Sequence record: MN927226.1 | Reading direction: 5' to 3' (one strand) | DNA from: Escherichia phage vB_EcoS_XY2 | DNA length: 44,138 nt | Shown here: piece by piece, positions 2,461 through 36,462 of the stretch | Layout: each line of letters opens with the position of its first letter | How positions within the stretch are numbered: position 1 is the first letter of the stretch | Program-made: the position numbers and the translations under genes | Notes under the pieces: model-generated | Database searches by the model: none | What the model saw: only the letters and a program-made list of their open reading frames with translations | What the model was told of the DNA's origin: nothing

Positions 2461-2489
2461 ATAGTATCCTATTATATTGGGGTGTGCAA
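2461..2489 (-). promoter_or_regulatory. early promoter TTGCAC-N17-TACTAT (leftward operon)
   Basis: Reverse complement cttgcacaccccaatataataggatactattcac; near-identical to modules at 25334 and 34320. Confidence 0.5.
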
Positions 2490-2561
2490 GAGAATAGTTA
2501 CGTTGCCGTTGTGATTCTTCGGGGAGGGTTGTGCCTTTATTCTTATTACTTGGTAACTAAA

Positions 2562-3446: not shown

Positions 3447-3575
3447 ATGACGAAGTTAATAGTTCCACAGCTGCGCCGACAGAAACACGGCGCCGATTTC
3501 TTCGCGCCGGTAAAGATGAACCGCGCAATGCGCCGTATGCAGGAAGCCTTAGAACGTGCGGAGAAAAAGAAATGA
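3447..3575 (+). CDS. small basic protein (42 aa)
   Basis: Hand-translated MTKLIVPQLRRQKHGADFFAPVKMNRAMRRMQEALERAEKKK; stop overlaps primase ATG (ATGA). Confidence 0.4.
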   Translation: MTKLIVPQLRRQKHGADFFAPVKMNRAMRRMQEALERAEKKK

Positions 3576-5794
3576 ATATTGTTTTTGCAACGCTGCGTAA
3601 CACATTCGATAAAAACCCTGTAGCGCGTGAAATGCCGCTGGAGCAGTTTGTCGAGTATGTCTGCGATACATCGAAGCGTTTATCCGTGGACCCGTCATGG
3701 ACTAAGGAAGAGTACGACGCTGCCAAGATTAAACAGAAAGCTATTGCGCCTGTTGGTGGTCGCCGTAAAAACGCTATCCTGGAAGACAGTGTGGTTAAGT
3801 TCGATTTCGACCATCTCAACCGTACTCAGTACCGCGACCTGACACGCAAATTCAAGAACGCGCCGTTCTTCAATATTCTGCACACAACGGCATCGCATCA
3901 GCACGCATGTAAAAATGGAGATTACGCTTTCCGCGTTCTGGTTCCAGCTCGCACGCCGTTTAACTCTAACGACGCGTGGATGGTGCAACGTGCTATTTGT
4001 GCAGAGTTAGAAATAGACGAAGCGTTGCGCGACCACTGCACAGAAGACGGCAACCGCCTTATCTACCTGCCGCATAAAGAGTCGAAGATAACGGTTACAG
4101 AAGGGCGTGTTATCCGTGCTGAGCGGTACATCAAGAAAGCCGAAGAGATGGGGTTGCGTAAGCGTGAGGCTAAAACACTTGCCGCCGATGAGTATGGGCT
4201 TAACGCTGATATAGCGCATTTCTGCGAAGCCGAGCTTGGCCTTGACGCTTTATCTTCCGGGCGCGGGTACGAAGTGCCATGCCCTAACGAACATCTGCAT
4301 ACAGGCAAGGGCTCCACCAGCATAATGCTCGACGGTAAAGAAGTGCGCTTTGTCTGCCAGCATACAAACAACGGCGCTTGCACCGAGCTTAACCGTAGGC
4401 AGCATTTGGCCCTGCGTATGTGTGGCCTACCCGACGAGCTTAACATAGATAAGCAACCTATCAGCATTAACAGCATTCGTGCGGCTCTGCCTGATTTACC
4501 GGAAGAAGAGATTGAAGAACTACACCGCACAGAGAACGAGGACCCAGTAACTTGCAGCCTCGACGACCTGGAAGACGATGCGGAATCAGAGGAGGACGAG
4601 TTACCAGAACCGGTAAAGGCTGATTTCGTCGTTGAAGGGTACATGCCGTCGGATTGTATCTGGGATATCGTCGGGGAATCTGGCACGTACAAATCGTTCT
4701 ATACGCTGGGGATGATGTACCTCAGCGCCGCCGGGTACAGGTTTGCGGGGGCGGATACCCAGCGTTGCCACCATTTCTATATTGATGGTGAGGGTGGCGC
4801 AGCTACACGCACCCGTATTGATGCACTAGCGGCTAAATATGGCGGGGAAGGTAAAGATTATGTACACGTCATCGATATGGGCGAAGTCGGCAAACTTAAA
4901 AGCCTGATTAAGTTAATGCGCGAAACTGCTGGCGACGAGCCAATTGGCATGGTTGCGTTCGACACCCTTAACCAGACCCTGGCACTGACGATTGATAAGT
5001 TCGACGAGAACAGTTCATCAACAGCAATCGGCATGGGTAAAGTTATCGCCATTCTGAAAGAAGTACGCGATGCAACTAAAGCCGCAGTAGGCGTTGTCCA
5101 CCATACGCCGAAGGGTGGAAAGAAAGCACGCGGCAGTGGGGCGCTGTATGCGGGTGTTGACGTGGAACTGACAATCGAACGTGCAACCGACCGTCAAATA
5201 AACGTATACCACTCGAAATTTAAGCACGGTCCTCAACAGAAAACGGTTGGCATGGTGCTGGAGTCTGTGCAGTTCCGCGAAGCTCCGCCGCCGAAAGAGT
5301 ACCGTGCGGTTGAGTTCCTGGGGGGCACAGAAGAATACGGCACAATCGTAAACCTGGACCTTCCTGAACCACACAAGGCGCTTGTGTTGATGCCGTGGGG
5401 TTTCGAGCCGTTCAAAACTGACGAGGAGAAAGAGCGGGAAGAAGGGTTGACGAAAGAAGGTAAGCAAAAAGTAAAGGAAGAAGTTAAACGCGGCAGGGAT
5501 GAAGTAAGGAAGGAGTCAATACTTTCGGCACTGGAAGACCTGCAACAGTCAGATGACACAGGTCGCGGTTTTACTCAGCAGCAGATAGTGGCTCGTTCCG
5601 GTGACTTCTCTGTGACTAACACCCATCTTGATAAAATGTTGAAAGATGGAGAACTAATGCTTGGTTGCGATGCTAACGGCGAAGTAGTACCGAGAACATA
5701 TCGTATACCCGAAAGAATAGGGGATAGATTAAGGCCGAAGACACTATACGAACCAAATGAGATGCTGGTGGTGACAGAGGAGGATTTGGAATAG
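3572..5794 (+). CDS. DNA primase/helicase-like replication protein (740 aa)
   Basis: Cys/His cluster CPNEHLHTGKGS...CQHTNNGAC; Walker-A-like GESGTYKS; position at head of replication module. Confidence 0.75.
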   Translation: MNIVFATLRNTFDKNPVAREMPLEQFVEYVCDTSKRLSVDPSWTKEEYDAAKIKQKAIAPVGGRRKNAILEDSVVKFDFDHLNRTQYRDLTRKFKNAPFFNILHTTASHQHACKNGDYAFRVLVPARTPFNSNDAWMVQRAICAELEIDEALRDHCTEDGNRLIYLPHKESKITVTEGRVIRAERYIKKAEEMGLRKREAKTLAADEYGLNADIAHFCEAELGLDALSSGRGYEVPCPNEHLHTGKGSTSIMLDGKEVRFVCQHTNNGACTELNRRQHLALRMCGLPDELNIDKQPISINSIRAALPDLPEEEIEELHRTENEDPVTCSLDDLEDDAESEEDELPEPVKADFVVEGYMPSDCIWDIVGESGTYKSFYTLGMMYLSAAGYRFAGADTQRCHHFYIDGEGGAATRTRIDALAAKYGGEGKDYVHVIDMGEVGKLKSLIKLMRETAGDEPIGMVAFDTLNQTLALTIDKFDENSSSTAIGMGKVIAILKEVRDATKAAVGVVHHTPKGGKKARGSGALYAGVDVELTIERATDRQINVYHSKFKHGPQQKTVGMVLESVQFREAPPPKEYRAVEFLGGTEEYGTIVNLDLPEPHKALVLMPWGFEPFKTDEEKEREEGLTKEGKQKVKEEVKRGRDEVRKESILSALEDLQQSDDTGRGFTQQQIVARSGDFSVTNTHLDKMLKDGELMLGCDANGEVVPRTYRIPERIGDRLRPKTLYEPNEMLVVTEEDLE

Positions 5795-6695: not shown

Positions 6696-6974
6696 ATGAT
6701 TTACCAACTCTACCGCGCCGTAGACAGGCGGGATAACACAGAGGCGTTGTGGCTGTTGCGTGCGCCGTCCGGTGCACACCAGATGGAAGAGATGGCGTAC
6801 TTAGGCAAAGTACCGCGTCCTAAAGATATAGGTCGTCACGTGTCGCGGATTAAACGCACGACATTCGCCAAGCCCGACTTTTATGTCTTCGAGTCGATGT
6901 ATGGATGGGCCTTACATTGCGACCACAAGACACGGCATTTAATTGACCAGTGGGAGAGCAGAGCATGGTTTTAA
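6696..6974 (+). CDS. hypothetical protein (92 aa)
   Basis: ORF track; GGAGGGG RBS. Confidence 0.6.
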   Translation: MIYQLYRAVDRRDNTEALWLLRAPSGAHQMEEMAYLGKVPRPKDIGRHVSRIKRTTFAKPDFYVFESMYGWALHCDHKTRHLIDQWESRAWF

Positions 6975-8206
6975 AGGAACGCGGCGGAAATAACGATGTA
7001 CACGCCTTACTGTCGCCGTCTGGGGCTAAAAAGTGGCTTAGCTGCGCGGCATCACTGGCCTGTGAAAAAGATATTCCTAACACGTCAGGTAAAGCTGCGG
7101 TATTAGGCACAGCAATGCACACCATAGCTGAGATGCACCTTAACCAGTACATCAAAGGTACTGCGCTGCCGTTAGAGCGCGAAGTAGGCGCTTACGTGCT
7201 GGATGAGGGTAAAGGCCAGATTAAGGCGCTAATCAGTCCGATGAAAGGTGCTGTACTGATTACGGCGGATATGATTGAGCAGGTGCGCAAGTACACCGAC
7301 TACTGCAAAGCGATTATAGATGTAGCGACTTACGCCAAGCTGGAAATGCGCGTCAATCTTACTGAGGTATTGCATCCGGGGTATGAAGGCGTTGAGACGT
7401 TCGGAACCGCTGACATTGTTGCCGTTCAGGAACTGGCTAACACCGATGAGCACATGCTAATCATCGGCGACCTTAAAACCGGGCGACATCGTGTCGAAGC
7501 GAAAGAAAACAAGCAGCTTATGCTTTACGCTCTCGGTGTTTATCGCCGACTCAAGAGACGTTATAACATAACAGTTGTTCGTCTGGTAATCTTCCAGCCG
7601 TACACTGGCGGCGCGTCGGAGTGGGACATCTCGGTTGAAGGCCTTGAACTGTTCACTAAGTTCGCACAGAAACGCGCGCTGTTAGCTATCGATGCGTATT
7701 TCCGTGGGAAGAAGAACCTGAAAGCGTCGGACTTCAAGCCGTCGGTCGATGGTTGTCAGTGGTGTCGGTTCTCAGAACAGTGCGCCGCGCGTACAAAAAC
7801 CGTCAACTCTGTGCTGGCGGAAGAACTGGAGGACGATTTTGCGCTTGAGCTTACGCCAGAGCAACTCGTAGCTGAGTATGAGAAGTTGCCGCTGTTGCGC
7901 CAGCACATCGACAAGGTTGAGAAAGCTATGGCCGTCGCATTGCATTCCGGTAAGAAGGTGCCGGGGTACAAGCTGGTTGAAGGACGCCAGGGTAATCGTG
8001 CGTGGAAAGACGCAGAGAAAGTAGCAGAACTCTACGGCGACAAGCTGACTAAAGAAGTGCTCATGTCACCTACCGAAGCTGTTAAAGTGATACCGGAAGA
8101 AGAACTGAAAGACTTCATCACACGTAAGCCGGGTGCACCATGTGTTGCAACGGCAGACGACAAGCGTCCTGAGTGGGATCAGGTAACAGAGGAGGATTTG
8201 GAATGA
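6965..8206 (+). CDS. PD-(D/E)XK nuclease, DUF2800/Cas4-like, with C-terminal Cys cluster
   Basis: GDLKTGRHRVEAKENKQLMLYALGVY nuclease core and CQWCRFSEQC; ATG at 6965 after GGGAGAG. Confidence 0.7.
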   Translation: MVLKERGGNNDVHALLSPSGAKKWLSCAASLACEKDIPNTSGKAAVLGTAMHTIAEMHLNQYIKGTALPLEREVGAYVLDEGKGQIKALISPMKGAVLITADMIEQVRKYTDYCKAIIDVATYAKLEMRVNLTEVLHPGYEGVETFGTADIVAVQELANTDEHMLIIGDLKTGRHRVEAKENKQLMLYALGVYRRLKRRYNITVVRLVIFQPYTGGASEWDISVEGLELFTKFAQKRALLAIDAYFRGKKNLKASDFKPSVDGCQWCRFSEQCAARTKTVNSVLAEELEDDFALELTPEQLVAEYEKLPLLRQHIDKVEKAMAVALHSGKKVPGYKLVEGRQGNRAWKDAEKVAELYGDKLTKEVLMSPTEAVKVIPEEELKDFITRKPGAPCVATADDKRPEWDQVTEEDLE

Positions 8207-9149: not shown

Positions 9150-11351
9150 ATGAGTTACCTGTTCTTAGACTTTGAAACATTCTCAGAAGCCGATTTGAAG
9201 AAAGTCGGTTCTTACGCTTACGCCGAACACCCGTCAACCGAAGTGCTTATCTGTACATATGCTTTTGACGACGAACCTGTGCGGGTATGGGATTGCACCG
9301 ACGGCAGCGACATGCCGGGGGATTTACACCGCGCACTGCGCCGCCTTGTTAAGCCCAACAGCCGCATCAAGATGGTGTGGCACAACGGTGGACTTTTCGA
9401 TCGCCTAATCATGAAACACTGCTGGGACTTTGATATTCCGGTAAGTAACACCATTGATACTATGATTTGGGCGTTCCGCCACGCGCTGCCGGGTTCTCTT
9501 GATGCGCTGTGCGAAGTGCTGGGCGTGTCTGCAGACAACGCGAAAGATAAACGCGGCAAGGCTCTGATTAAGCGTTTCTCTAAACCGACGCCGAAGAACT
9601 ACAAAATCCGCCGCTACACCGCAGAAACTCACCCTGACGAGTGGGCGATGTTCATCAGGTACGCCGTGAGCGACATCACTGCGATGCGTGAAGTCTTCCA
9701 TAAGCTGCCGCGTTGGGGTAACTCCGAGTTCGAAGACCGTGTACTGGAACTTGACCAGTTAATCAACGACCGCGGATTTAAGGTTGACGTCGCACTGGCG
9801 GAAGCCGCGATTGAAGCCGTAGAGAAGCACAAGGCACAGTTACAGGAAGAAGCTCAACGTAAATACGGCGGCTCGCTTACCGGTAAAGACTTCCTTCCGA
9901 TTCTGCGTGAACTTTCGCCCGCGCACCGCATACACAATGCACAGAAGTCGACGCTTAACGACCTGTTGGCAGATGATGATTTACCGGACGACGCCCGGAT
10001 GATTATCGAAATGCGCCTCGGGGCCGCGTCAACAGCGTCAACGAAATATACCCCGCTGCTGTTGGGCCGCTCGTCGGACGACCGCCGTCGTGGTTGCTTG
10101 CAGTACGGCGGAGCGAAACGTACTCTGCGATGGGCGGGTAAAGGATTCCAGCCGCAGAACCTGGCGCGAGGTTACTATCACGATGATGAACTGGATAAAG
10201 GCATTTCAGCGTTACTTAAGGGTCGAGCGCATCGCCGTTTTGATGTAGCCAAGCTAACAGCATCTACGGTTCGTAGCTGCATTATCCCGGAAGCGGGGTA
10301 TAAGTTTGTCGTTGCCGATTACTCTAACGTTGAAGGCCGTGGTTTAGCGTGGCTGGCCGGAGAAGAAACCGCGCTCGATACGTTCCGCGCCGGACTGGAT
10401 ATTTACTGCGTAACCGCAGGTAAGATGTTCGGCATGGACCCCGATGACATTAAGAAAAACTTCAAGGAAATCAGACAGATAGGCAAGGCTTGCGAGCTTG
10501 GCCTCGGCTATGAAGGCGGCGTCGGAGCGTTCGTTACGTTCGCCAAAAACTTAGGTCTTGACCTTATTGAGATGGCAAAAACAATGGACGGTACATTCCC
10601 CGACCACATCTGGTCAGCCACCGCGAGAGGATATGAATGGGCGCGCATCCAGGAAGCCAAGCGCCCCCCGCATCCAGGTGAAAAGGACGACAGGCCATCA
10701 TATATTCTTGATAAAAAAGTATGGCGTACTTGTGACGCTATCAAGCGTATGTGGCGCGAGTCACACCCGGAAACAGTAGCGTTCTGGCGCGACCTTAAAG
10801 ATGGAATTTTAGCCGCTGTGCGTAATCCTGGTCGTGAATTTTGGGCGGGGGCACACTTGCGCAGAAATGGGGAAAGGGCTATCCGCATATGGCGTACTGT
10901 AGAATTTGATTCATCCGGTAGGAAGGTTCCGGGTTGGTGGTTGTGTATGGAGTTGCCGTCTGGCCGTATCCTCTCGTATCCGGGAATCGGGGTTAGTGTG
11001 ACAAAGGAAACAGATGAAGACGGACGGGTGAACACGAATGTGCGAATCAAGTATCAAGGTGAAAACCAGTTAACCCGCCAATGGACTACCCTGTACACAC
11101 ACGGCGGCAAAGCCTGCGAAAACATTGTTCAGGCGCTGTGCCGGGATTTACTCGCATATGCGATGATTAAGGTTGAGGATGGCGGGTATCCCATCGTGCT
11201 TTCGGTACACGATGAACTGGTGTGCGAAACTCCAGATACGCCGGAATACAGTGTGGCTGAACTGGAACGATTGATGTGCGCGTTGCCTGAGTGGGCAGAA
11301 GGCTTCCCTCTTGTAGCGGAAGGTAGCGAAATGTACAGATATGCTAAATGA
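9150..11351 (+). CDS. family-A DNA polymerase with N-terminal 3'-5' exonuclease domain
   Basis: N-terminal FLDFETFS exonuclease motif; 733-aa ORF. Confidence 0.8.
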   Translation: MSYLFLDFETFSEADLKKVGSYAYAEHPSTEVLICTYAFDDEPVRVWDCTDGSDMPGDLHRALRRLVKPNSRIKMVWHNGGLFDRLIMKHCWDFDIPVSNTIDTMIWAFRHALPGSLDALCEVLGVSADNAKDKRGKALIKRFSKPTPKNYKIRRYTAETHPDEWAMFIRYAVSDITAMREVFHKLPRWGNSEFEDRVLELDQLINDRGFKVDVALAEAAIEAVEKHKAQLQEEAQRKYGGSLTGKDFLPILRELSPAHRIHNAQKSTLNDLLADDDLPDDARMIIEMRLGAASTASTKYTPLLLGRSSDDRRRGCLQYGGAKRTLRWAGKGFQPQNLARGYYHDDELDKGISALLKGRAHRRFDVAKLTASTVRSCIIPEAGYKFVVADYSNVEGRGLAWLAGEETALDTFRAGLDIYCVTAGKMFGMDPDDIKKNFKEIRQIGKACELGLGYEGGVGAFVTFAKNLGLDLIEMAKTMDGTFPDHIWSATARGYEWARIQEAKRPPHPGEKDDRPSYILDKKVWRTCDAIKRMWRESHPETVAFWRDLKDGILAAVRNPGREFWAGAHLRRNGERAIRIWRTVEFDSSGRKVPGWWLCMELPSGRILSYPGIGVSVTKETDEDGRVNTNVRIKYQGENQLTRQWTTLYTHGGKACENIVQALCRDLLAYAMIKVEDGGYPIVLSVHDELVCETPDTPEYSVAELERLMCALPEWAEGFPLVAEGSEMYRYAK

Positions 11352-11364
11352 TGAGGGGCGATTT

Positions 11365-11862
11365 ATGAGAGATTTAATTAATTGGCATGACCATTTCTAC
11401 TACGAACCTGACACGGGGAAGATACGATGGAAGTATTCCCCGAGACACAGTATAAACGCCGGAGACGAAGCCGGTAGCCCAAGTAAGAGGGGCTACATCT
11501 GTATCGTCGTCAGAGGGGTTAGTTACAGGGCTAATCGCATCGCGTGGGAGATGTATAACAATGACCGTTTAGGGCCTGATGATGAGGTAGACCATATAAA
11601 TCACATCCTGGATGATAATCGTGCATGCAACCTTCGGAAAGTATCCCGTACTGATAATAACCGAAACGCATCTCGCAGAAAAGATAACAAGTCAGGCCTC
11701 ACTGGTGTGCACTGGAACGCACGGGCGGATAAATGGAAAGCAGGGATATTCGTTGACGGTAAACTTATATTCCTGGGCCACCATGACAATATATTTGACG
11801 CGGCTTGTGCCCGGAAATCTGCGATTGTTCGCTACGGCTTTCATGAGAATCACGGAGGTTAG
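11365..11862 (+). CDS. HNH homing endonuclease with AP2-like DNA-binding domain
   Basis: VDHINHILDDNRACNLR HNH motif; GVHWNARADKWKAGIFVDGK AP2-like; GAGGGG RBS before ATG 11365. Confidence 0.7.
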   Translation: MRDLINWHDHFYYEPDTGKIRWKYSPRHSINAGDEAGSPSKRGYICIVVRGVSYRANRIAWEMYNNDRLGPDDEVDHINHILDDNRACNLRKVSRTDNNRNASRRKDNKSGLTGVHWNARADKWKAGIFVDGKLIFLGHHDNIFDAACARKSAIVRYGFHENHGG

Positions 11863-25226: not shown

Positions 25227-25333
25227 TCTTTAATCCTTTGGTTAAGAGGTTACAGGTTAAGGTTAATGCGCCAGACGGGAACCACCCGCTTTTCGTGTGC
25301 GACACTAGGCGCAAACTTATTCTAACACACTAC

Positions 25334-25362
25334 TTGCGCGCCCCAATATAATAGGGTACTAT
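25334..25362 (+). promoter_or_regulatory. early-type promoter TTGCGC-N17-TACTAT for plus-strand island
   Basis: ttgcgcgccccaatataatagggtactattca; near-identical to 34320-34350. Confidence 0.55.
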
Positions 25363-25390: not shown

Positions 25391-25717
25391 ATGCGTAAAT
25401 TAGTATTAGCTCTGGGGTTTATGTCTTTTGCTACTTTTGGAGCCCCGTGCGAACAGGTATTTAGTGAATCTGTTCTTATGACTTCTGGTGTGCTCGAGAA
25501 AGCCGACCCTACTATTGTAAAGGCGTTCAAGGACTCTACAGTTCGCGAGTGTGAGGCCGCCGTGGAGGTTGGTAAATCGGGCCTACCCCCGCAGGCCGTA
25601 ACCTACACAGTGATACGTTCGGTAGAGAAAAACGGAGATGCTTTCTATAGCCTACTGACAGCCACCCGTCTGCAAATGGTAATGACAGGGTGGGCGATAG
25701 GCGCAGAAAGTAAATAG
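25391..25717 (+). CDS. secreted/periplasmic protein (108 aa)
   Basis: N-terminal MRKLVLALGFMSFATFGAP signal-like segment, two Cys; GAGGG RBS. Confidence 0.65.
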   Translation: MRKLVLALGFMSFATFGAPCEQVFSESVLMTSGVLEKADPTIVKAFKDSTVRECEAAVEVGKSGLPPQAVTYTVIRSVEKNGDAFYSLLTATRLQMVMTGWAIGAESK

Positions 25718-25782
25718 TTGCCTTTATTTAAAGGAATCCACTGTGGTTAAATAGGACAAATCCTAAACACGAGGAAGTAAGC

Positions 25783-26913
25783 ATGGCCCAGAAGAAAATA
25801 ACCGACGAACAGTTACAGGAAGAATTGAACGCCGGGATGAAGAATGTAGACATCGCCCGTAAATACGGCATCTCAGACCGAGTTATTCGTATCCGTAAAG
25901 CGAAGCTGGCTAAGAAAGGTGTAGGCCACGGGCGTGACGTTAGCCACCTTGTCCCAGACGGCTACAAGATTAAAGGGACGTCGTCTCTGGTAGACGAGTT
26001 CGGCAATACTAAGTTGCAATGGGTTAAGACAGACACCGACGCTGAACGTCAGGTCGAGTTGATGAAAGCCGTGATTGAAGGCATGAAGTCAGAGATTACG
26101 CCAGTTGCGCCGGCTAAAGCGACTCGAGCCAAACGCGACGACAAGCTACTCAATCTTTACACGGTATCTGATTTCCATCTCGGTATGCTTGCCTGGGCCG
26201 ACGAGAGCGGCGACGACTGGGATATAAAGATTGCGGAAGACCTGTTCTCTCGTTGGTTCGACGCGGCGTTTCAGAAAGCACCGGATGCAGGAACAGGAGT
26301 TATTAACCTGCTGGGTGATTTCGCGCACTTCGATAGTCTGGATGCCGTTACACCTGAGTCGCGTCACGTGTTGGACGCAGACACTCGCTACCAGAAACTC
26401 GTCCGCTACATGATTCGTATGGTACGCCGTGTTGTAGATATGGCACTGGTTAAACATAAAAATGTTCGCTTGCTTATCGTACAGGGGAACCATGACCCTG
26501 TAGGCTCTGTATGGCTGGCTGAAATGTTCACAGTTTTATATTCGAACGACAGCCGAGTGATTGTCGATACGTCGCCGGATGTTTACAAGATGGTGCAACA
26601 CGGAAAAACGACGTTGTTCTTTCACCACGGGCATAAGGCGCGATTCGATGCTATCGAACCGGTTATGATTGCCAAGTTCCGCAAAGCGTTCGGTGAGAGT
26701 GTTTACAGCTACGCCCACGTAGGCCACCTGCACCACCAGAAGATTGTAGAAAGCCGTAACATGATTGTTGAGCAACACCGCACCTTAGCGGCGAAAGACG
26801 CCTACGCCTCGCGCGGCGGATGGATGTCAGGCCGTAGTGCAAATGTAATTACTTATAGCGCCGAATATGGCGAGGTCGCACGTTTAACTATTTCACCGGA
26901 GATGCTGGGATGA
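25783..26913 (+). CDS. HTH domain fused to calcineurin-like metallophosphoesterase
   Basis: Ordered motifs SDFHLG, LLGDFAHFD, VQGNHDP, FFHHGH, HVGHLHH after an HTH-like N-terminus. Confidence 0.75.
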   Translation: MAQKKITDEQLQEELNAGMKNVDIARKYGISDRVIRIRKAKLAKKGVGHGRDVSHLVPDGYKIKGTSSLVDEFGNTKLQWVKTDTDAERQVELMKAVIEGMKSEITPVAPAKATRAKRDDKLLNLYTVSDFHLGMLAWADESGDDWDIKIAEDLFSRWFDAAFQKAPDAGTGVINLLGDFAHFDSLDAVTPESRHVLDADTRYQKLVRYMIRMVRRVVDMALVKHKNVRLLIVQGNHDPVGSVWLAEMFTVLYSNDSRVIVDTSPDVYKMVQHGKTTLFFHHGHKARFDAIEPVMIAKFRKAFGESVYSYAHVGHLHHQKIVESRNMIVEQHRTLAAKDAYASRGGWMSGRSANVITYSAEYGEVARLTISPEMLG

Positions 26914-33504: not shown

Positions 33505-33768
33505 CTATTCCAGAATATTCCTCACGTAATCCTGCAACATGAACACTTTCAGTCTCAGTTGCCGTACGCATTCAGCATTCTGAACGTCGACGGCCAAATC
33601 CTCATCAGCGTCGCTACTTGGCTGCGCCAGTTTGCACGGCGGCTGCATCATCGTCGTATCCGGGGATGGAATTGGCGTTGGCGACGGCGTGGGACTTGAG
33701 CTGCACGCGCTCAGGGTCAAAAGTGCACACGCTGCGACCAGGCGTTTTAATGTACTTAACGACTTCAC
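33505..33768 (-). CDS. o-spanin (Rz1-like outer-membrane lipoprotein)
   Basis: Lipobox LSAC after hydrophobic signal; Pro-rich mature region; overlaps i-spanin in another frame. Confidence 0.55.
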   Translation of the reverse strand: MKSLSTLKRLVAACALLTLSACSSSPTPSPTPIPSPDTTMMQPPCKLAQPSSDADEDLAVDVQNAECVRQLRLKVFMLQDYVRNILE

Positions 33769-34000
33769 GGGTAATCACCTCTGATTTCGTCTTGCCTTCG
33801 TTGTCAGCGGCGGCGGCCTTCGATTCATCCTGCTGCTGCCGTTGTGTTTTCTCCGCTAACTCAGCCTGTGCTTTCTGCTGTTGCTGCGAAACGAGATTAG
33901 CCCGGCCTTCGTTCCATCCGCTGCGATACTGGTAGATGCCGTGTGCGTAAACCAGGATGATGAAACATGCTCCTGCTACGACAGTTGCTTTAAGATTCAT
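33614..34000 (-). CDS. i-spanin (Rz-like)
   Basis: N-terminal TM ATVVAGACFIILVYA then Gln/Glu-rich coiled coil. Confidence 0.6.
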   Translation of the reverse strand: MNLKATVVAGACFIILVYAHGIYQYRSGWNEGRANLVSQQQQKAQAELAEKTQRQQQDESKAAAADNEGKTKSEVITREVVKYIKTPGRSVCTFDPERVQLKSHAVANANSIPGYDDDAAAVQTGAAK

Positions 34001-34044: not shown

Positions 34045-34251
34045 GCTAGTCCTTATCATTTAAACATAGAAACGGCGTAATCTCAGTAAACCAGTTACTT
34101 TTTACACAAGCAATAGAGTATGGCCCTTCCGAACGCGTCAGCGTAACTACACTCAGGACTTACGTCCAGCTCCGTTACCTGCCCGCGCCGCGGTCGCTTG
34201 TTCATACTTCACAAGCTCAGGTGGAGCTTAGCACATTTTTAGTGAAAAGTC

Positions 34252-34267
34252 AACTATTCGAATAGTT
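34252..34267. repeat. perfect 16-bp palindrome AACTATTCGAATAGTT
   Basis: Read directly, about 55 bp upstream of promoter 34320. Confidence 0.6.
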
Positions 34268-34319
34268 TATTCCAGAATTTACAATTGAGTGGAATAACTT
34301 GAATAAGTAAATAAATAGT

Positions 34320-34348
34320 TTGCGCACCCCAATATAATAGGGTACTAT
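34320..34348 (+). promoter_or_regulatory. early-type promoter TTGCGC-N17-TACTAT for DnaN-like gene
   Basis: ttgcgcaccccaatataatagggtactatcca; near-identical to 25334-25364. Confidence 0.55.
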
Positions 34349-34375
34349 CCAGTTAACTTAAACAGGAGATGAGAA

Positions 34376-34897
34376 ATGGTTACTACAGTAATTACTTTCC
34401 CTGCGTATGTAGGGGCGAAAATATGCAGGGCTAAAAATGATGTTCGCTACTATTTGAACGCTTTTTACATAGACCCTGAAGGATTGATAGTGTCTACGGA
34501 CGGTCATAGATTGTTCTGCGACAACGTGAAGACAAACGTCGAAACTGGAGTTCTAATAGACATCAAAGGGAGGGAGCCTTCTAAATTTAATTACGCGGAG
34601 GTAGACCACGACAACGGCAGTGTTTCTTTCTATGACGATAGTCGTGCGCTTATATGTACACTTCCGGTGTATGTTGTAGACGGAAAATTTCCTGACTGGC
34701 GACGCGTAGCGCGCATTACACCTGGTTCAGTTGATAGCATAGGGTTTACTCTGTGTTATTTGGCAGACGCGCACAAGATTTCTAAGGCATATAAAAATGA
34801 AATTGCTCGTTTCGATTTCCAGGACAAAACCAGAGGATGCAAAATATCATTTTCAAACACAGCATTTATGGTGTTAATGCCTGCGCGAGTTAAATAA
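34376..34897 (+). CDS. truncated beta sliding clamp (DnaN) homolog, domain II plus C-terminal part of domain III
   Basis: DVRYYLN, TDGHRLF, VDGKFPDWRRV, IGFTLCY and C-terminal FMVLMPARV match recalled E. coli DnaN segments; 173 aa vs 366. Confidence 0.75.
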   Translation: MVTTVITFPAYVGAKICRAKNDVRYYLNAFYIDPEGLIVSTDGHRLFCDNVKTNVETGVLIDIKGREPSKFNYAEVDHDNGSVSFYDDSRALICTLPVYVVDGKFPDWRRVARITPGSVDSIGFTLCYLADAHKISKAYKNEIARFDFQDKTRGCKISFSNTAFMVLMPARVK

Positions 34898-34901
34898 AAC
34901 T

Positions 34902-34921
34902 AAGGCCCCTTACGGGGCCTT
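34902..34921. terminator. bidirectional terminator AAGGCCCC-ttac-GGGGCCTT
   Basis: Perfect 8-bp stem right after stop of 34376..34897. Confidence 0.7.
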
Positions 34922-34924
34922 TTA

Positions 34925-35386
34925 TCATTCTGGCTTAGTGACCTTCGCCGCTTTACTTACCGCCTCTACCCCATCGGCATCGGTAACTTTAACGAAGTAT
35001 TCACCGACTGCGTTAACCGTCAGAGACAAAGCCTCTTCAGGTGCGTTTACAACTTCCTTACCGTCTTTGTACCATGTCAGCGCATATGGTGCTTTGCCCG
35101 CCTTAACTTCAACAGCGATAGTTGCACTGCCGTCTGTCAGTTCAGTGTCCTGCGGTTGCACAGAGAAATACACGTCGCCAGCGTCCGCCAGATACGGAAT
35201 CTCATAAAGCATACCCGCCGCTGGCAGCGCAATACCGGTCTTGTCTGCAAACGGCATATCATCCACTGGTGTACCGAGTACACTTTCATCCTCAATAAAT
35301 ACCACGTTCTCGCCAGAGCCAGACACGCGGGCGTACTGGACAACACGGCGCGACGGTACATCAGTTACTTTGAAAAAGCCCATCAT
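34925..35386 (-). CDS. Ig-like domain protein (153 aa)
   Basis: ALTWYKDGKEV...GEYFVKVTDADG Ig-like pattern; TAATG coupling. Confidence 0.55.
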   Translation of the reverse strand: MMGFFKVTDVPSRRVVQYARVSGSGENVVFIEDESVLGTPVDDMPFADKTGIALPAAGMLYEIPYLADAGDVYFSVQPQDTELTDGSATIAVEVKAGKAPYALTWYKDGKEVVNAPEEALSLTVNAVGEYFVKVTDADGVEAVSKAAKVTKPE

Positions 35387-36462
35387 TAATCCCCTTTCAG
35401 ATAATCAGCAACACGTTTATCGAGTTCCGCCATCTGCTTAAGCGTGAGCGGATTCCCGAAACCATCTACAGATATTACGCGAAACTCTTCCGGCGATATA
35501 CCGCTGTTACGGAAAATCTTACCGCGAACAGGACCGAGCGCCTGGTCCTGAAACCATGCTGGTTGTTGTTTCAGGAACTCGTAATAGGTGGTGTCCGCGC
35601 TTACCTGAGTACCGCCGTCCGCACCCTTAGCCGCACGTTTTGCGCCTTTATCAAGGAAGTCGAACTCTGAACTGATTACCGGTGCAGTGGTACTTCGGCA
35701 ATTAGGATGGGCTGGTGGCATCGGACCTTTACCGATTTCCCACGTCATTCCGTCTCTGGCCCTGCAAATCGTGCTGGTACGGCTGTCCAAAGTTGACACC
35801 CACTCATATTTCTCGATGATGTCGTCGTTCTGGCGGTACGTCTCGTTACGGGCCTCGTTGGATACGTGGGACAGCGCGGTGCGGATTACCGTAGTCGCGT
35901 TACGTTCTGAGATGTCGGCTAGCCCACCAGCGCCAACAACATTCTTAACAATCTGCCGTGTGGTTTGACCTTGCACAAAGCCCATCTTAACTCCAGTTAC
36001 AAGACGTGCTACTTCCGTTTCACCCCAGCCGTCCATCAGCTTAGTGAAATCAACGGGCTTGTCGCTCAATGATAATGGTTGAAACTCGGCAGCGGCCCAT
36101 ACCTGCTCAGCGGTAGGCGTAACAAATTCCGCGTCTACGTTGGCGGTCAGTGTCTTTACGTTCCACTCAGCCTCGTACGCCGCCAGTTCCTTAAGGTCGT
36201 CTGTTAGCTTTGTTTGCCAGTCACCCGTAATACCGGTTAGTGCTTCTTCCAGGTCGCGTAACAGTTTATTCAGTCGCGCAGTGCTGCGACCGTCGTCACC
36301 GAATAACAGCACCTGCCGTTTGATTTCATCCCTTATCTCCTGAATGAACGGCGTGAGGTCTTTCACTTCACCGGATGCGGTGCGTTGCAGCCATATCTGA
36401 TGGCTGATTAGGGATGTAAGTAAGCTCATAGATAAACCCTGTGGCGCTAAAGTTAATAGCAT
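35386..36462 (-). CDS. head morphogenesis / minor head protein
   Basis: 358-aa ORF immediately after portal gene. Confidence 0.6.
   Translation of the reverse strand: MLLTLAPQGLSMSLLTSLISHQIWLQRTASGEVKDLTPFIQEIRDEIKRQVLLFGDDGRSTARLNKLLRDLEEALTGITGDWQTKLTDDLKELAAYEAEWNVKTLTANVDAEFVTPTAEQVWAAAEFQPLSLSDKPVDFTKLMDGWGETEVARLVTGVKMGFVQGQTTRQIVKNVVGAGGLADISERNATTVIRTALSHVSNEARNETYRQNDDIIEKYEWVSTLDSRTSTICRARDGMTWEIGKGPMPPAHPNCRSTTAPVISSEFDFLDKGAKRAAKGADGGTQVSADTTYYEFLKQQPAWFQDQALGPVRGKIFRNSGISPEEFRVISVDGFGNPLTLKQMAELDKRVADYLKGD

Follow-up and report, generated by a model that had tools for sequence, protein, structure and literature searches.

The pocket of the bacterial beta clamp, also an antibiotic target, serves as the hub that coordinates all bacterial polymerases, the clamp loader, Hda and mismatch repair. 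The locus studied here raises the question of what this pocket can do when little else of the clamp is left: it encodes a protein of 173 aa, henceforth the mini-clamp, whose homolog in E. coli, DnaN, has 366 aa. The family to which it belongs is widespread in phages and has been pared to little beyond the clamp pocket, and in this sense represents a natural experiment. The window, i.e. the whole stretch of DNA that was analyzed, comprises 44,138 nucleotides of Escherichia phage vB_EcoS_XY2 (MN927226.1) and is a nearly complete genome of a Kagunavirus-type (Guernseyvirinae) E. coli phage; many phages on deposit share ~92 % identity with it. The gene and its immediate surroundings are made up of the following features:

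33614-34000, minus strand: Rz-like spanin gene, flanking the mini-clamp cassette
34150..34925, no strand assigned: low-GC cassette with reversed GC skew (GC 0.39-0.45, against 0.50-0.55 in the flanks)
34319..34348, plus strand: conserved promoter-like element of 30 bp, TTTGCGCACCCCAATATAATAGGGTACTAT, with TATAAT at 34333-34338; precedes the mini-clamp gene
34364..34368, plus strand: ribosome-binding site AGGAG with the ATG 7 nt downstream, read directly from the sequence; an RBS is annotated in the ortholog of phage Snoke
34376..34897, plus strand: coding sequence of the truncated beta-clamp homolog, 173 aa, with homology to DnaN ~131-255 and 313-366
34902..34921, no strand assigned: bidirectional intrinsic terminator hairpin, with an 8-bp GC-rich stem and a T run on both strands, from a terminator scan of both strands
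34925-35386, minus strand: Hoc-like head-decoration gene, on the other flank of the cassette

Homology to DnaN and the extent of the truncation

The 173-aa protein is a DnaN homolog with the DNA-clamp fold. A phmmer search against PDB sequences recovered E. coli beta (E 6e-6), with residues 16-119 corresponding to DnaN 144-255, and comparison of a 62-member family alignment with E. coli DnaN using hhalign gave a probability of 99.6 % (E 6e-24). A profile of the final 62 residues alone aligned with DnaN 313-366 (95.4 %, E 2e-8). On these alignments the mini-clamp is DnaN ~131-255 joined to 313-366, with domain I and the N-terminal half of domain III missing. This is the architecture claimed in a preliminary description of the locus, and the motif positions and E. 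coli numbering given there proved to be exact. In structural comparisons with Foldseek the 173 residues superpose on E. coli beta over 251-264 columns with a TM score of 0.62-0.69, again the clamp fold that had been anticipated. This superposition spans the gap left by the deletion, so that the model places the remaining half of domain III at the position that it has in a real clamp. Both the model of the window protein and that of a second family member, P0047 (pLDDT 91.3), are confident, compact folds. Most family members retain three inner helices; the second helix of domain II is kept in P0047 and lost in the Kagunavirus subgroup, which lacks one channel helix. There was no solved structure of any family member among the PDB matches.

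When the protein is searched as a single sequence, PF02767 is the only Pfam model matched, at 16.8 bits (under the cut-off of 27), and TIGR00663 scores 17.2 bits against a cut-off of 137.65. The three-domain combination by which DnaN is defined (PF00712 + PF02767 + PF02768; TIGR00663) is not present in the mini-clamp. These scores below the cut-offs account for the inconsistent labels in databases. GenBank records of Kagunavirus, Dhillonvirus and T1-like phages carry labels such as "DNA polymerase III sliding clamp" or "beta clamp domain protein", and orthologs at 90-94 % identity are already annotated as sliding clamps, e.g. Snoke gp006, for which HHpred gives 99.88 to DnaN. The PHROG label "RusA-like Holliday junction resolvase" was rejected, as RusA models match 0 of the 62 members and PF02767 matches 54, and the fold is that of a clamp. 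This mislabel of PHROG_3007 is spreading via Pharokka into new phage records (e.g. L003, L007 and L009).

PHROG_3007 itself matches from end to end, at residues 13-172 of the protein (E 3.8e-36). Among 1.84 billion representatives, a profile search yielded 353 clusters at E <= 1e-30, so that the family, with clusters defined at 50 % identity, contains at least 353 of them; the best 150 of the 353 cluster representatives are all 169-302 aa long and match profile positions ~1-180. At least 365 family loci are present in IMG/VR, and many short clamp-like phage proteins in BFVD. Longer members (221-292 aa) that were checked for fusions possess tails only, with no additional Pfam domain. E. coli chromosomes gave no match to the mini-clamp, and plasmid matches were rejected as mini-clamps, being full-length dnaN paralogs of 422 aa. 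One of these lies at 44290-45558 of NZ_CP056246.1 (L016) and others are found on ~100 large plasmids of Citrobacter, Klebsiella and Enterobacter; the plasmid paralog adjoins a Dam methylase and is near ssb and rdgC.

The existence of such proteins is not new. Kazlauskas and Venclovas reported five short phage polIII-beta homologs in 2011 (PMC3201878), and the mini-clamp belongs to the same family (PHROG_3007 / phrog_947). Genome papers take a normal clamp role for granted (PMC9825357), and the literature that we searched yielded no functional study of the short phage clamps. With annotations in place and a first report from 2011, the object itself is no discovery, and what the present analysis adds is a sharper anatomy and hypotheses: where the 2011 paper speaks of "the second and third domains" (PMC3201878), we find domain II and only the C-terminal half of domain III.

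The protein-binding pocket and the ring interface

In E. coli beta, subsite I of the pocket comprises R152, L155, T172, G174, H175, R176, L177, P242, R246, V247, V360 and M362, and subsite II comprises H175, N320, Y323, V344, M362, P363, M364 and R365; the dimer interface is built from I78, F106, I272 and L273, plus R103, E298 and E304 (PMC11139829, a 2024 review). Against an overall identity of ~26 %, the window protein matches E. coli at 15 of 18 pocket positions and at every one of the 12 in subsite I, so the protein-binding cleft is indeed kept, as the preliminary description had maintained. The three changes are N320T, V344T and M364A, and the majority of the family retains the N and the M. 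Across 62 family members, with 24-30 % overall identity, T41, G43 and P106 are invariant, and R24, H44, R45, R110, Y128, M168, P169 and R171 are at least 92 % conserved. The family can be recognized by a signature, DVRYYLN / TDGHR / PDWRR / Y / MPxR, which is carried on domain II and the C-terminal half of domain III. All canonical head-to-tail interface residues, on the other hand, fall in segments without counterpart, namely domain I (I78, R103, F106) and 256-312 (I272, L273, E298, E304), and the deletion of the N-terminal half of domain III was seen in every member inspected, including forms of 190-290 aa and the model P0047. This pattern, with the pocket selectively kept and both ring-closing surfaces cleanly lost, speaks for the binding of clamp-binding-motif (CBM) peptides outside the canonical ring as the activity that would be under conservation. 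Pocket residues are the most conserved of clamps generally, so their retention could be partly structural.

The same anatomy bears on two other explanations. One of them, raised in the preliminary description, is that the protein acts as a poison subunit, pairing with host beta in mixed dimers and so breaking its ring. It is a clamp homolog, presumed to be in the host cytoplasm, and the edges exposed by its deletions could in principle pair with something; however, the loss of every canonical interface residue weakens the idea of pairing through the normal interface, and we consider it very improbable. The other is that the gene is a decaying, functionless remnant of a captured dnaN, as might be suspected from the truncation of the protein and from the dispensability of the gene in most relatives. 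This explanation is scarcely credible, given that the family persists as at least 353 clusters (50 % identity) with an end-to-end architecture in the best 150, that the pocket residues stay invariant despite the low overall identity, that both models are confident and compact, and that the promoter-like element, the RBS and the terminator are intact. Indeed, the conservation pattern effectively refutes it.

Known sliding clamps are dimers of three domains or trimers of two, and the clamp domain is itself a pseudo-two-fold pair of beta-alpha-beta-beta-beta motifs. Two mini-clamp protomers might conceivably pair their orphan domain III halves around a dyad, and two such arcs might close via their domain-II edges to give a D2 tetramer, although we regard this as quite improbable. 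The tetramer could amount to 4 x 1.5 = 6 domain equivalents, with pockets on both faces and 12 inner helices in typical members, and, if true, would constitute a fourth sliding-clamp architecture. The face of helix 126-139 is rich in Ala, Gly and Ser where E. coli has L325, V327, L328 and L331, a composition that would allow tight helix packing without proving it.

Self-assembly into a new ring (e.g. 4 x 1.5 domains) is also one variant of a further alternative, in which the mini-clamp serves as a replication tether or processivity adaptor that keeps a polymerase with a CBM, be it host Pol III, host Pol I or the PolA replisome of the phage, attached to phage DNA. The second variant is a non-ring DNA-binding factor like UL42/UL44. 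The herpesvirus proteins UL42, UL44 and BMRF1 have two complete domains with a strongly basic DNA-binding face and bind the C-terminus of the polymerase, whereas the mini-clamp has 1.5 bacterial-type domains with a bacterial CBM pocket. Consistent with a tether, the pI of the family is neutral to basic (median 7.7, range 5.3-9.1; 8.55 for the window protein), unlike that of the acidic ring clamps, and pI has been used as a criterion for non-ring clamps (PMC3201878). Lysines of channel-type helices are conserved as well, K134 in 55 of the 62 members and K142 in 47, and three inner helices persist in most of the family, although the channel helix missing from the Kagunavirus subgroup speaks against the idea. 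A polymerase tether or a ring of its own would be an addition to the known clamp architectures; on balance we hold a tethering role to be possible but rather unlikely, in part for reasons that come from the gene contexts.

Cassette anatomy, promoter-like element and gene contexts

The mini-clamp gene lies on the strand opposite to both of its flanking genes, for the spanin and the head-decoration protein, and is followed by a hairpin (34902-34921) of -15.4 kcal/mol with a z-score of -4.8. The clamp region is fully covered in 22 of 181 related Kagunavirus-type records, and a protein at least 60-80 % identical is encoded in 22-26 of them (~12-14 %). In related phages the terminator of the slot is kept downstream of alternative cargo genes, and in Bas70 and SHAK7693 the identical promoter-like element, 5' leader and terminator frame other small cargo ORFs at the clamp slot; the clamp cassette of SHAK7693 occupies a second slot, between its head-morphogenesis and portal genes. 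The terminator, the opposite strand, the atypical composition and the presence or absence in close relatives are those of an accessory ("moron"-type) cassette, with a putative promoter. Judging from these genome comparisons, the gene is optional, mobile cargo within Kagunavirus. As an aside, the SHAK7693 record (L005, OR594180.1) is filed under Autographiviridae/Kayfunavirus and named vB_EcoM, yet is collinear with Kagunavirus siphophages. Further, the capsid-morphogenesis gene of Snoke (L001 5491-7350) holds an intein of 273 residues, and its ortholog in the window (35386-36462, 358 aa) is intein-free.

The element upstream of the mini-clamp gene occurs 3 times in the window, where 0 occurrences would be expected by chance, and all 3 copies precede a transcription unit. 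Around the copies the conserved block extends over ~33 bp, CTTGCgCaCCCCAATATAATAGGgTACTATtCA, with unrelated flanks. Besides the copy at the mini-clamp gene, the relevant features are:

2461..2490, minus strand: third copy of the promoter-like element, preceding a leftward run of small early-type ORFs
25333..25362, plus strand: second copy, preceding a plus-strand island inside the tail genes
25391-26913, plus strand: the second opposite-strand island inside the tail genes, preceded by the promoter-like element

Although its -10 hexamer is perfect, the element was not flagged by a sigma-70 consensus scan, since it lacks a -35 hexamer at 17 bp. Its recurrence and its location lead us to infer that it is a promoter, and the combination of a perfect -10 with no -35 at the usual distance suggests that it may join a promoter to a binding site for a phage regulator. 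Early expression of the mini-clamp would follow from the element that its gene has in common with the early region, and this commonality is the sole basis for the timing. Thus, of the expression signals in the preliminary description, the opposite-strand position and own terminator stand, and the early-type promoter becomes a putative assignment drawn from the 3-copy element. The island at 25391-26913 encodes a 108-aa ORF (phrog_14165, function unassigned) and a 376-aa "DNA repair exonuclease" (phrog_704) with a weak calcineurin-like phosphoesterase match.

Beyond Kagunavirus the gene is found in a range of contexts. In Dhillonvirus it occupies the same slot after the spanins, in genomes that also encode PolA, and in one of these phages, EP23, it occurs together with an Nmad5 gene. 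T1-like phages, Skate, Rouf and KpV2811 have it as the final gene of an opposite-strand island inside the structural genes, an island that also holds a ParB-like gene, a C5-methyltransferase and a 57-aa ORF. It is flanked by Dam and Dcm methylases in Skarpretter, forms a lone island in the tail genes of Gorganvirus, and heads a long early operon of small genes in a metagenomic phage. In the lambdoid yong1 it lies between cII and O/P-like replication genes, and in PEi21 directly after a gp2.5-like SSB and PolA. Temperate groups have it downstream of the repressor/Cro switch, with phrog_6784, a DUF2800 exonuclease and a gp2.5-like SSB coming next. Bas79 has a mini-clamp and no DNA polymerase gene. 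The common denominator of these contexts is an early DNA-replication or DNA-modification neighborhood, in phages with or without their own polymerase. At a finer scale, a conserved neighbor sought in 80 IMG/VR loci was not found, none being common to more than 4 of the 12 locus groups; the commonest neighbors there are CI-like repressors and HNH endonucleases. In L034 (3684-8546) and temperate groups 3, 5 and 6, the clamp gene is situated just downstream of a CI-like repressor with an S24 peptidase domain, on the same strand.

The replication-module contexts in PEi21, yong1 and the temperate groups with the DUF2800 exonuclease and gp2.5-like SSB are what one would expect of a tether. Against it, the PolA replisome is universal in Kagunavirus while the mini-clamp gene is optional, the gene has no widely common neighbor, and the window products that were examined include no clamp loader. 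When the 69 predicted window proteins and neighbors from other phages were scanned by regex for clamp-binding motifs, the only matches were internal and unconserved, and PolA had none. The small ORFs translationally coupled to the clamp gene in T1-like phages, Skarpretter and Vibrio phages had no motif either. The conserved string QMHLSL in ParB-like neighbors was rejected as a hexameric CBM, since it forms the recognition helix of the helix-turn-helix in ParB; a ParB-like gene is absent from the window. The optional nature of the gene in Kagunavirus and its presence in polymerase-less phages make a dedicated PolA processivity factor unlikely and, along with a PolA devoid of a CBM, weaken the suggestion of the preliminary description that the protein adapts the phage polymerase. 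Its occurrence in the polymerase-less Bas79 argues for a partner from the host rather than a phage polymerase.

A host-directed role could also take the form of counter-defense. SocB-type toxins acting on the beta clamp exist, and a free pocket could act as a decoy or anti-toxin, soaking up a host, prophage or plasmid protein that targets or senses beta via a CBM, such as a SocB-like toxin, a clamp-dependent nuclease or an exclusion factor, so that replication is protected in hosts carrying them. Patchy presence, a swappable promoter-terminator slot, low GC and apparent early-type expression are all typical of anti-defense cargo, and methyltransferase, ParB-like and Nmad5 genes adjoin the clamp gene in several genera. 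However, PADLOC gave no match, and the literature searched contained no clamp-linked defense system. We therefore see counter-defense as an unlikely role.

A free pocket as a possible competitor of the host clamp

Among the explanations considered, we tentatively lean, with less than even confidence, to an accessory protein that acts early, binds CBM peptides off the ring and competes with host beta for its clients. Of the roles suggested in the preliminary description, the decoy is the one closest to this reading and stays the favored, if hypothetical, option. Domain II and the half of domain III packed against it would form a minimal "pocket module" whose cleft accommodates peptides of the QLxLF-type CBM. 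Early in infection the mini-clamp would bind CBM-bearing proteins away from the DNA-loaded ring, and through this competition clamp-dependent DNA transactions of the host might be redirected or dampened to the benefit of the phage. Candidate clients are the clamp-loader subunit delta, Hda, MutL/MutS and polymerases. A monomeric form of beta, I272A/L273A, binds delta ~50-fold more tightly than the dimer does (PMC11139829), which makes delta an attractive candidate. This mutant, as a protomer that keeps the pocket and is unable to close a ring, is possibly a laboratory analogue of the mini-clamp, with the difference that it is an engineered full-length protein and the phage protein a natural deletion form.

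An indiscriminate sponge would hurt the lambdoid and T1-like carriers, which rely on the Pol III and the clamp of the host. Since these phages need host Pol III, the proposed titration would have to be selective, or else the protein would recruit its partners instead of inhibiting them. Other phage strategies address this host hub too, with Twort Gp168, Mu MuC and T4 gp45-dependent late transcription targeting or using the clamp (PMC8565349, PMC12867686, PMC2988020). Those systems consist of clamp ligands or plugs, or of a full phage clamp, whereas the mini-clamp is a copy of the binding site of the clamp itself. If it is a free competitor, it would represent a new phage route to rewire host replication and repair, and would offer inhibitor screens a ready, soluble scaffold of the pocket. 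Members of the family are abundant, and these predictions are simple to check.

Two further observations concern the replication genes of the window. The helicase-primase (3572-5794, plus strand) and the DUF2800/PD-(D/E)XK exonuclease (6950-8206, plus strand) have a common C-terminal heptapeptide, VTEEDLE, which by analogy with the T7 replisome suggests a common acidic docking tail. The family-A DNA polymerase (9150-11862, plus strand) contains an internal PHROG match to "endonuclease" at residues 445-538, and the 3' end of its gene overlaps an HNH endonuclease gene at 11341-11862; homing-endonuclease activity around the polymerase gene may lie behind both the match and the overlap.
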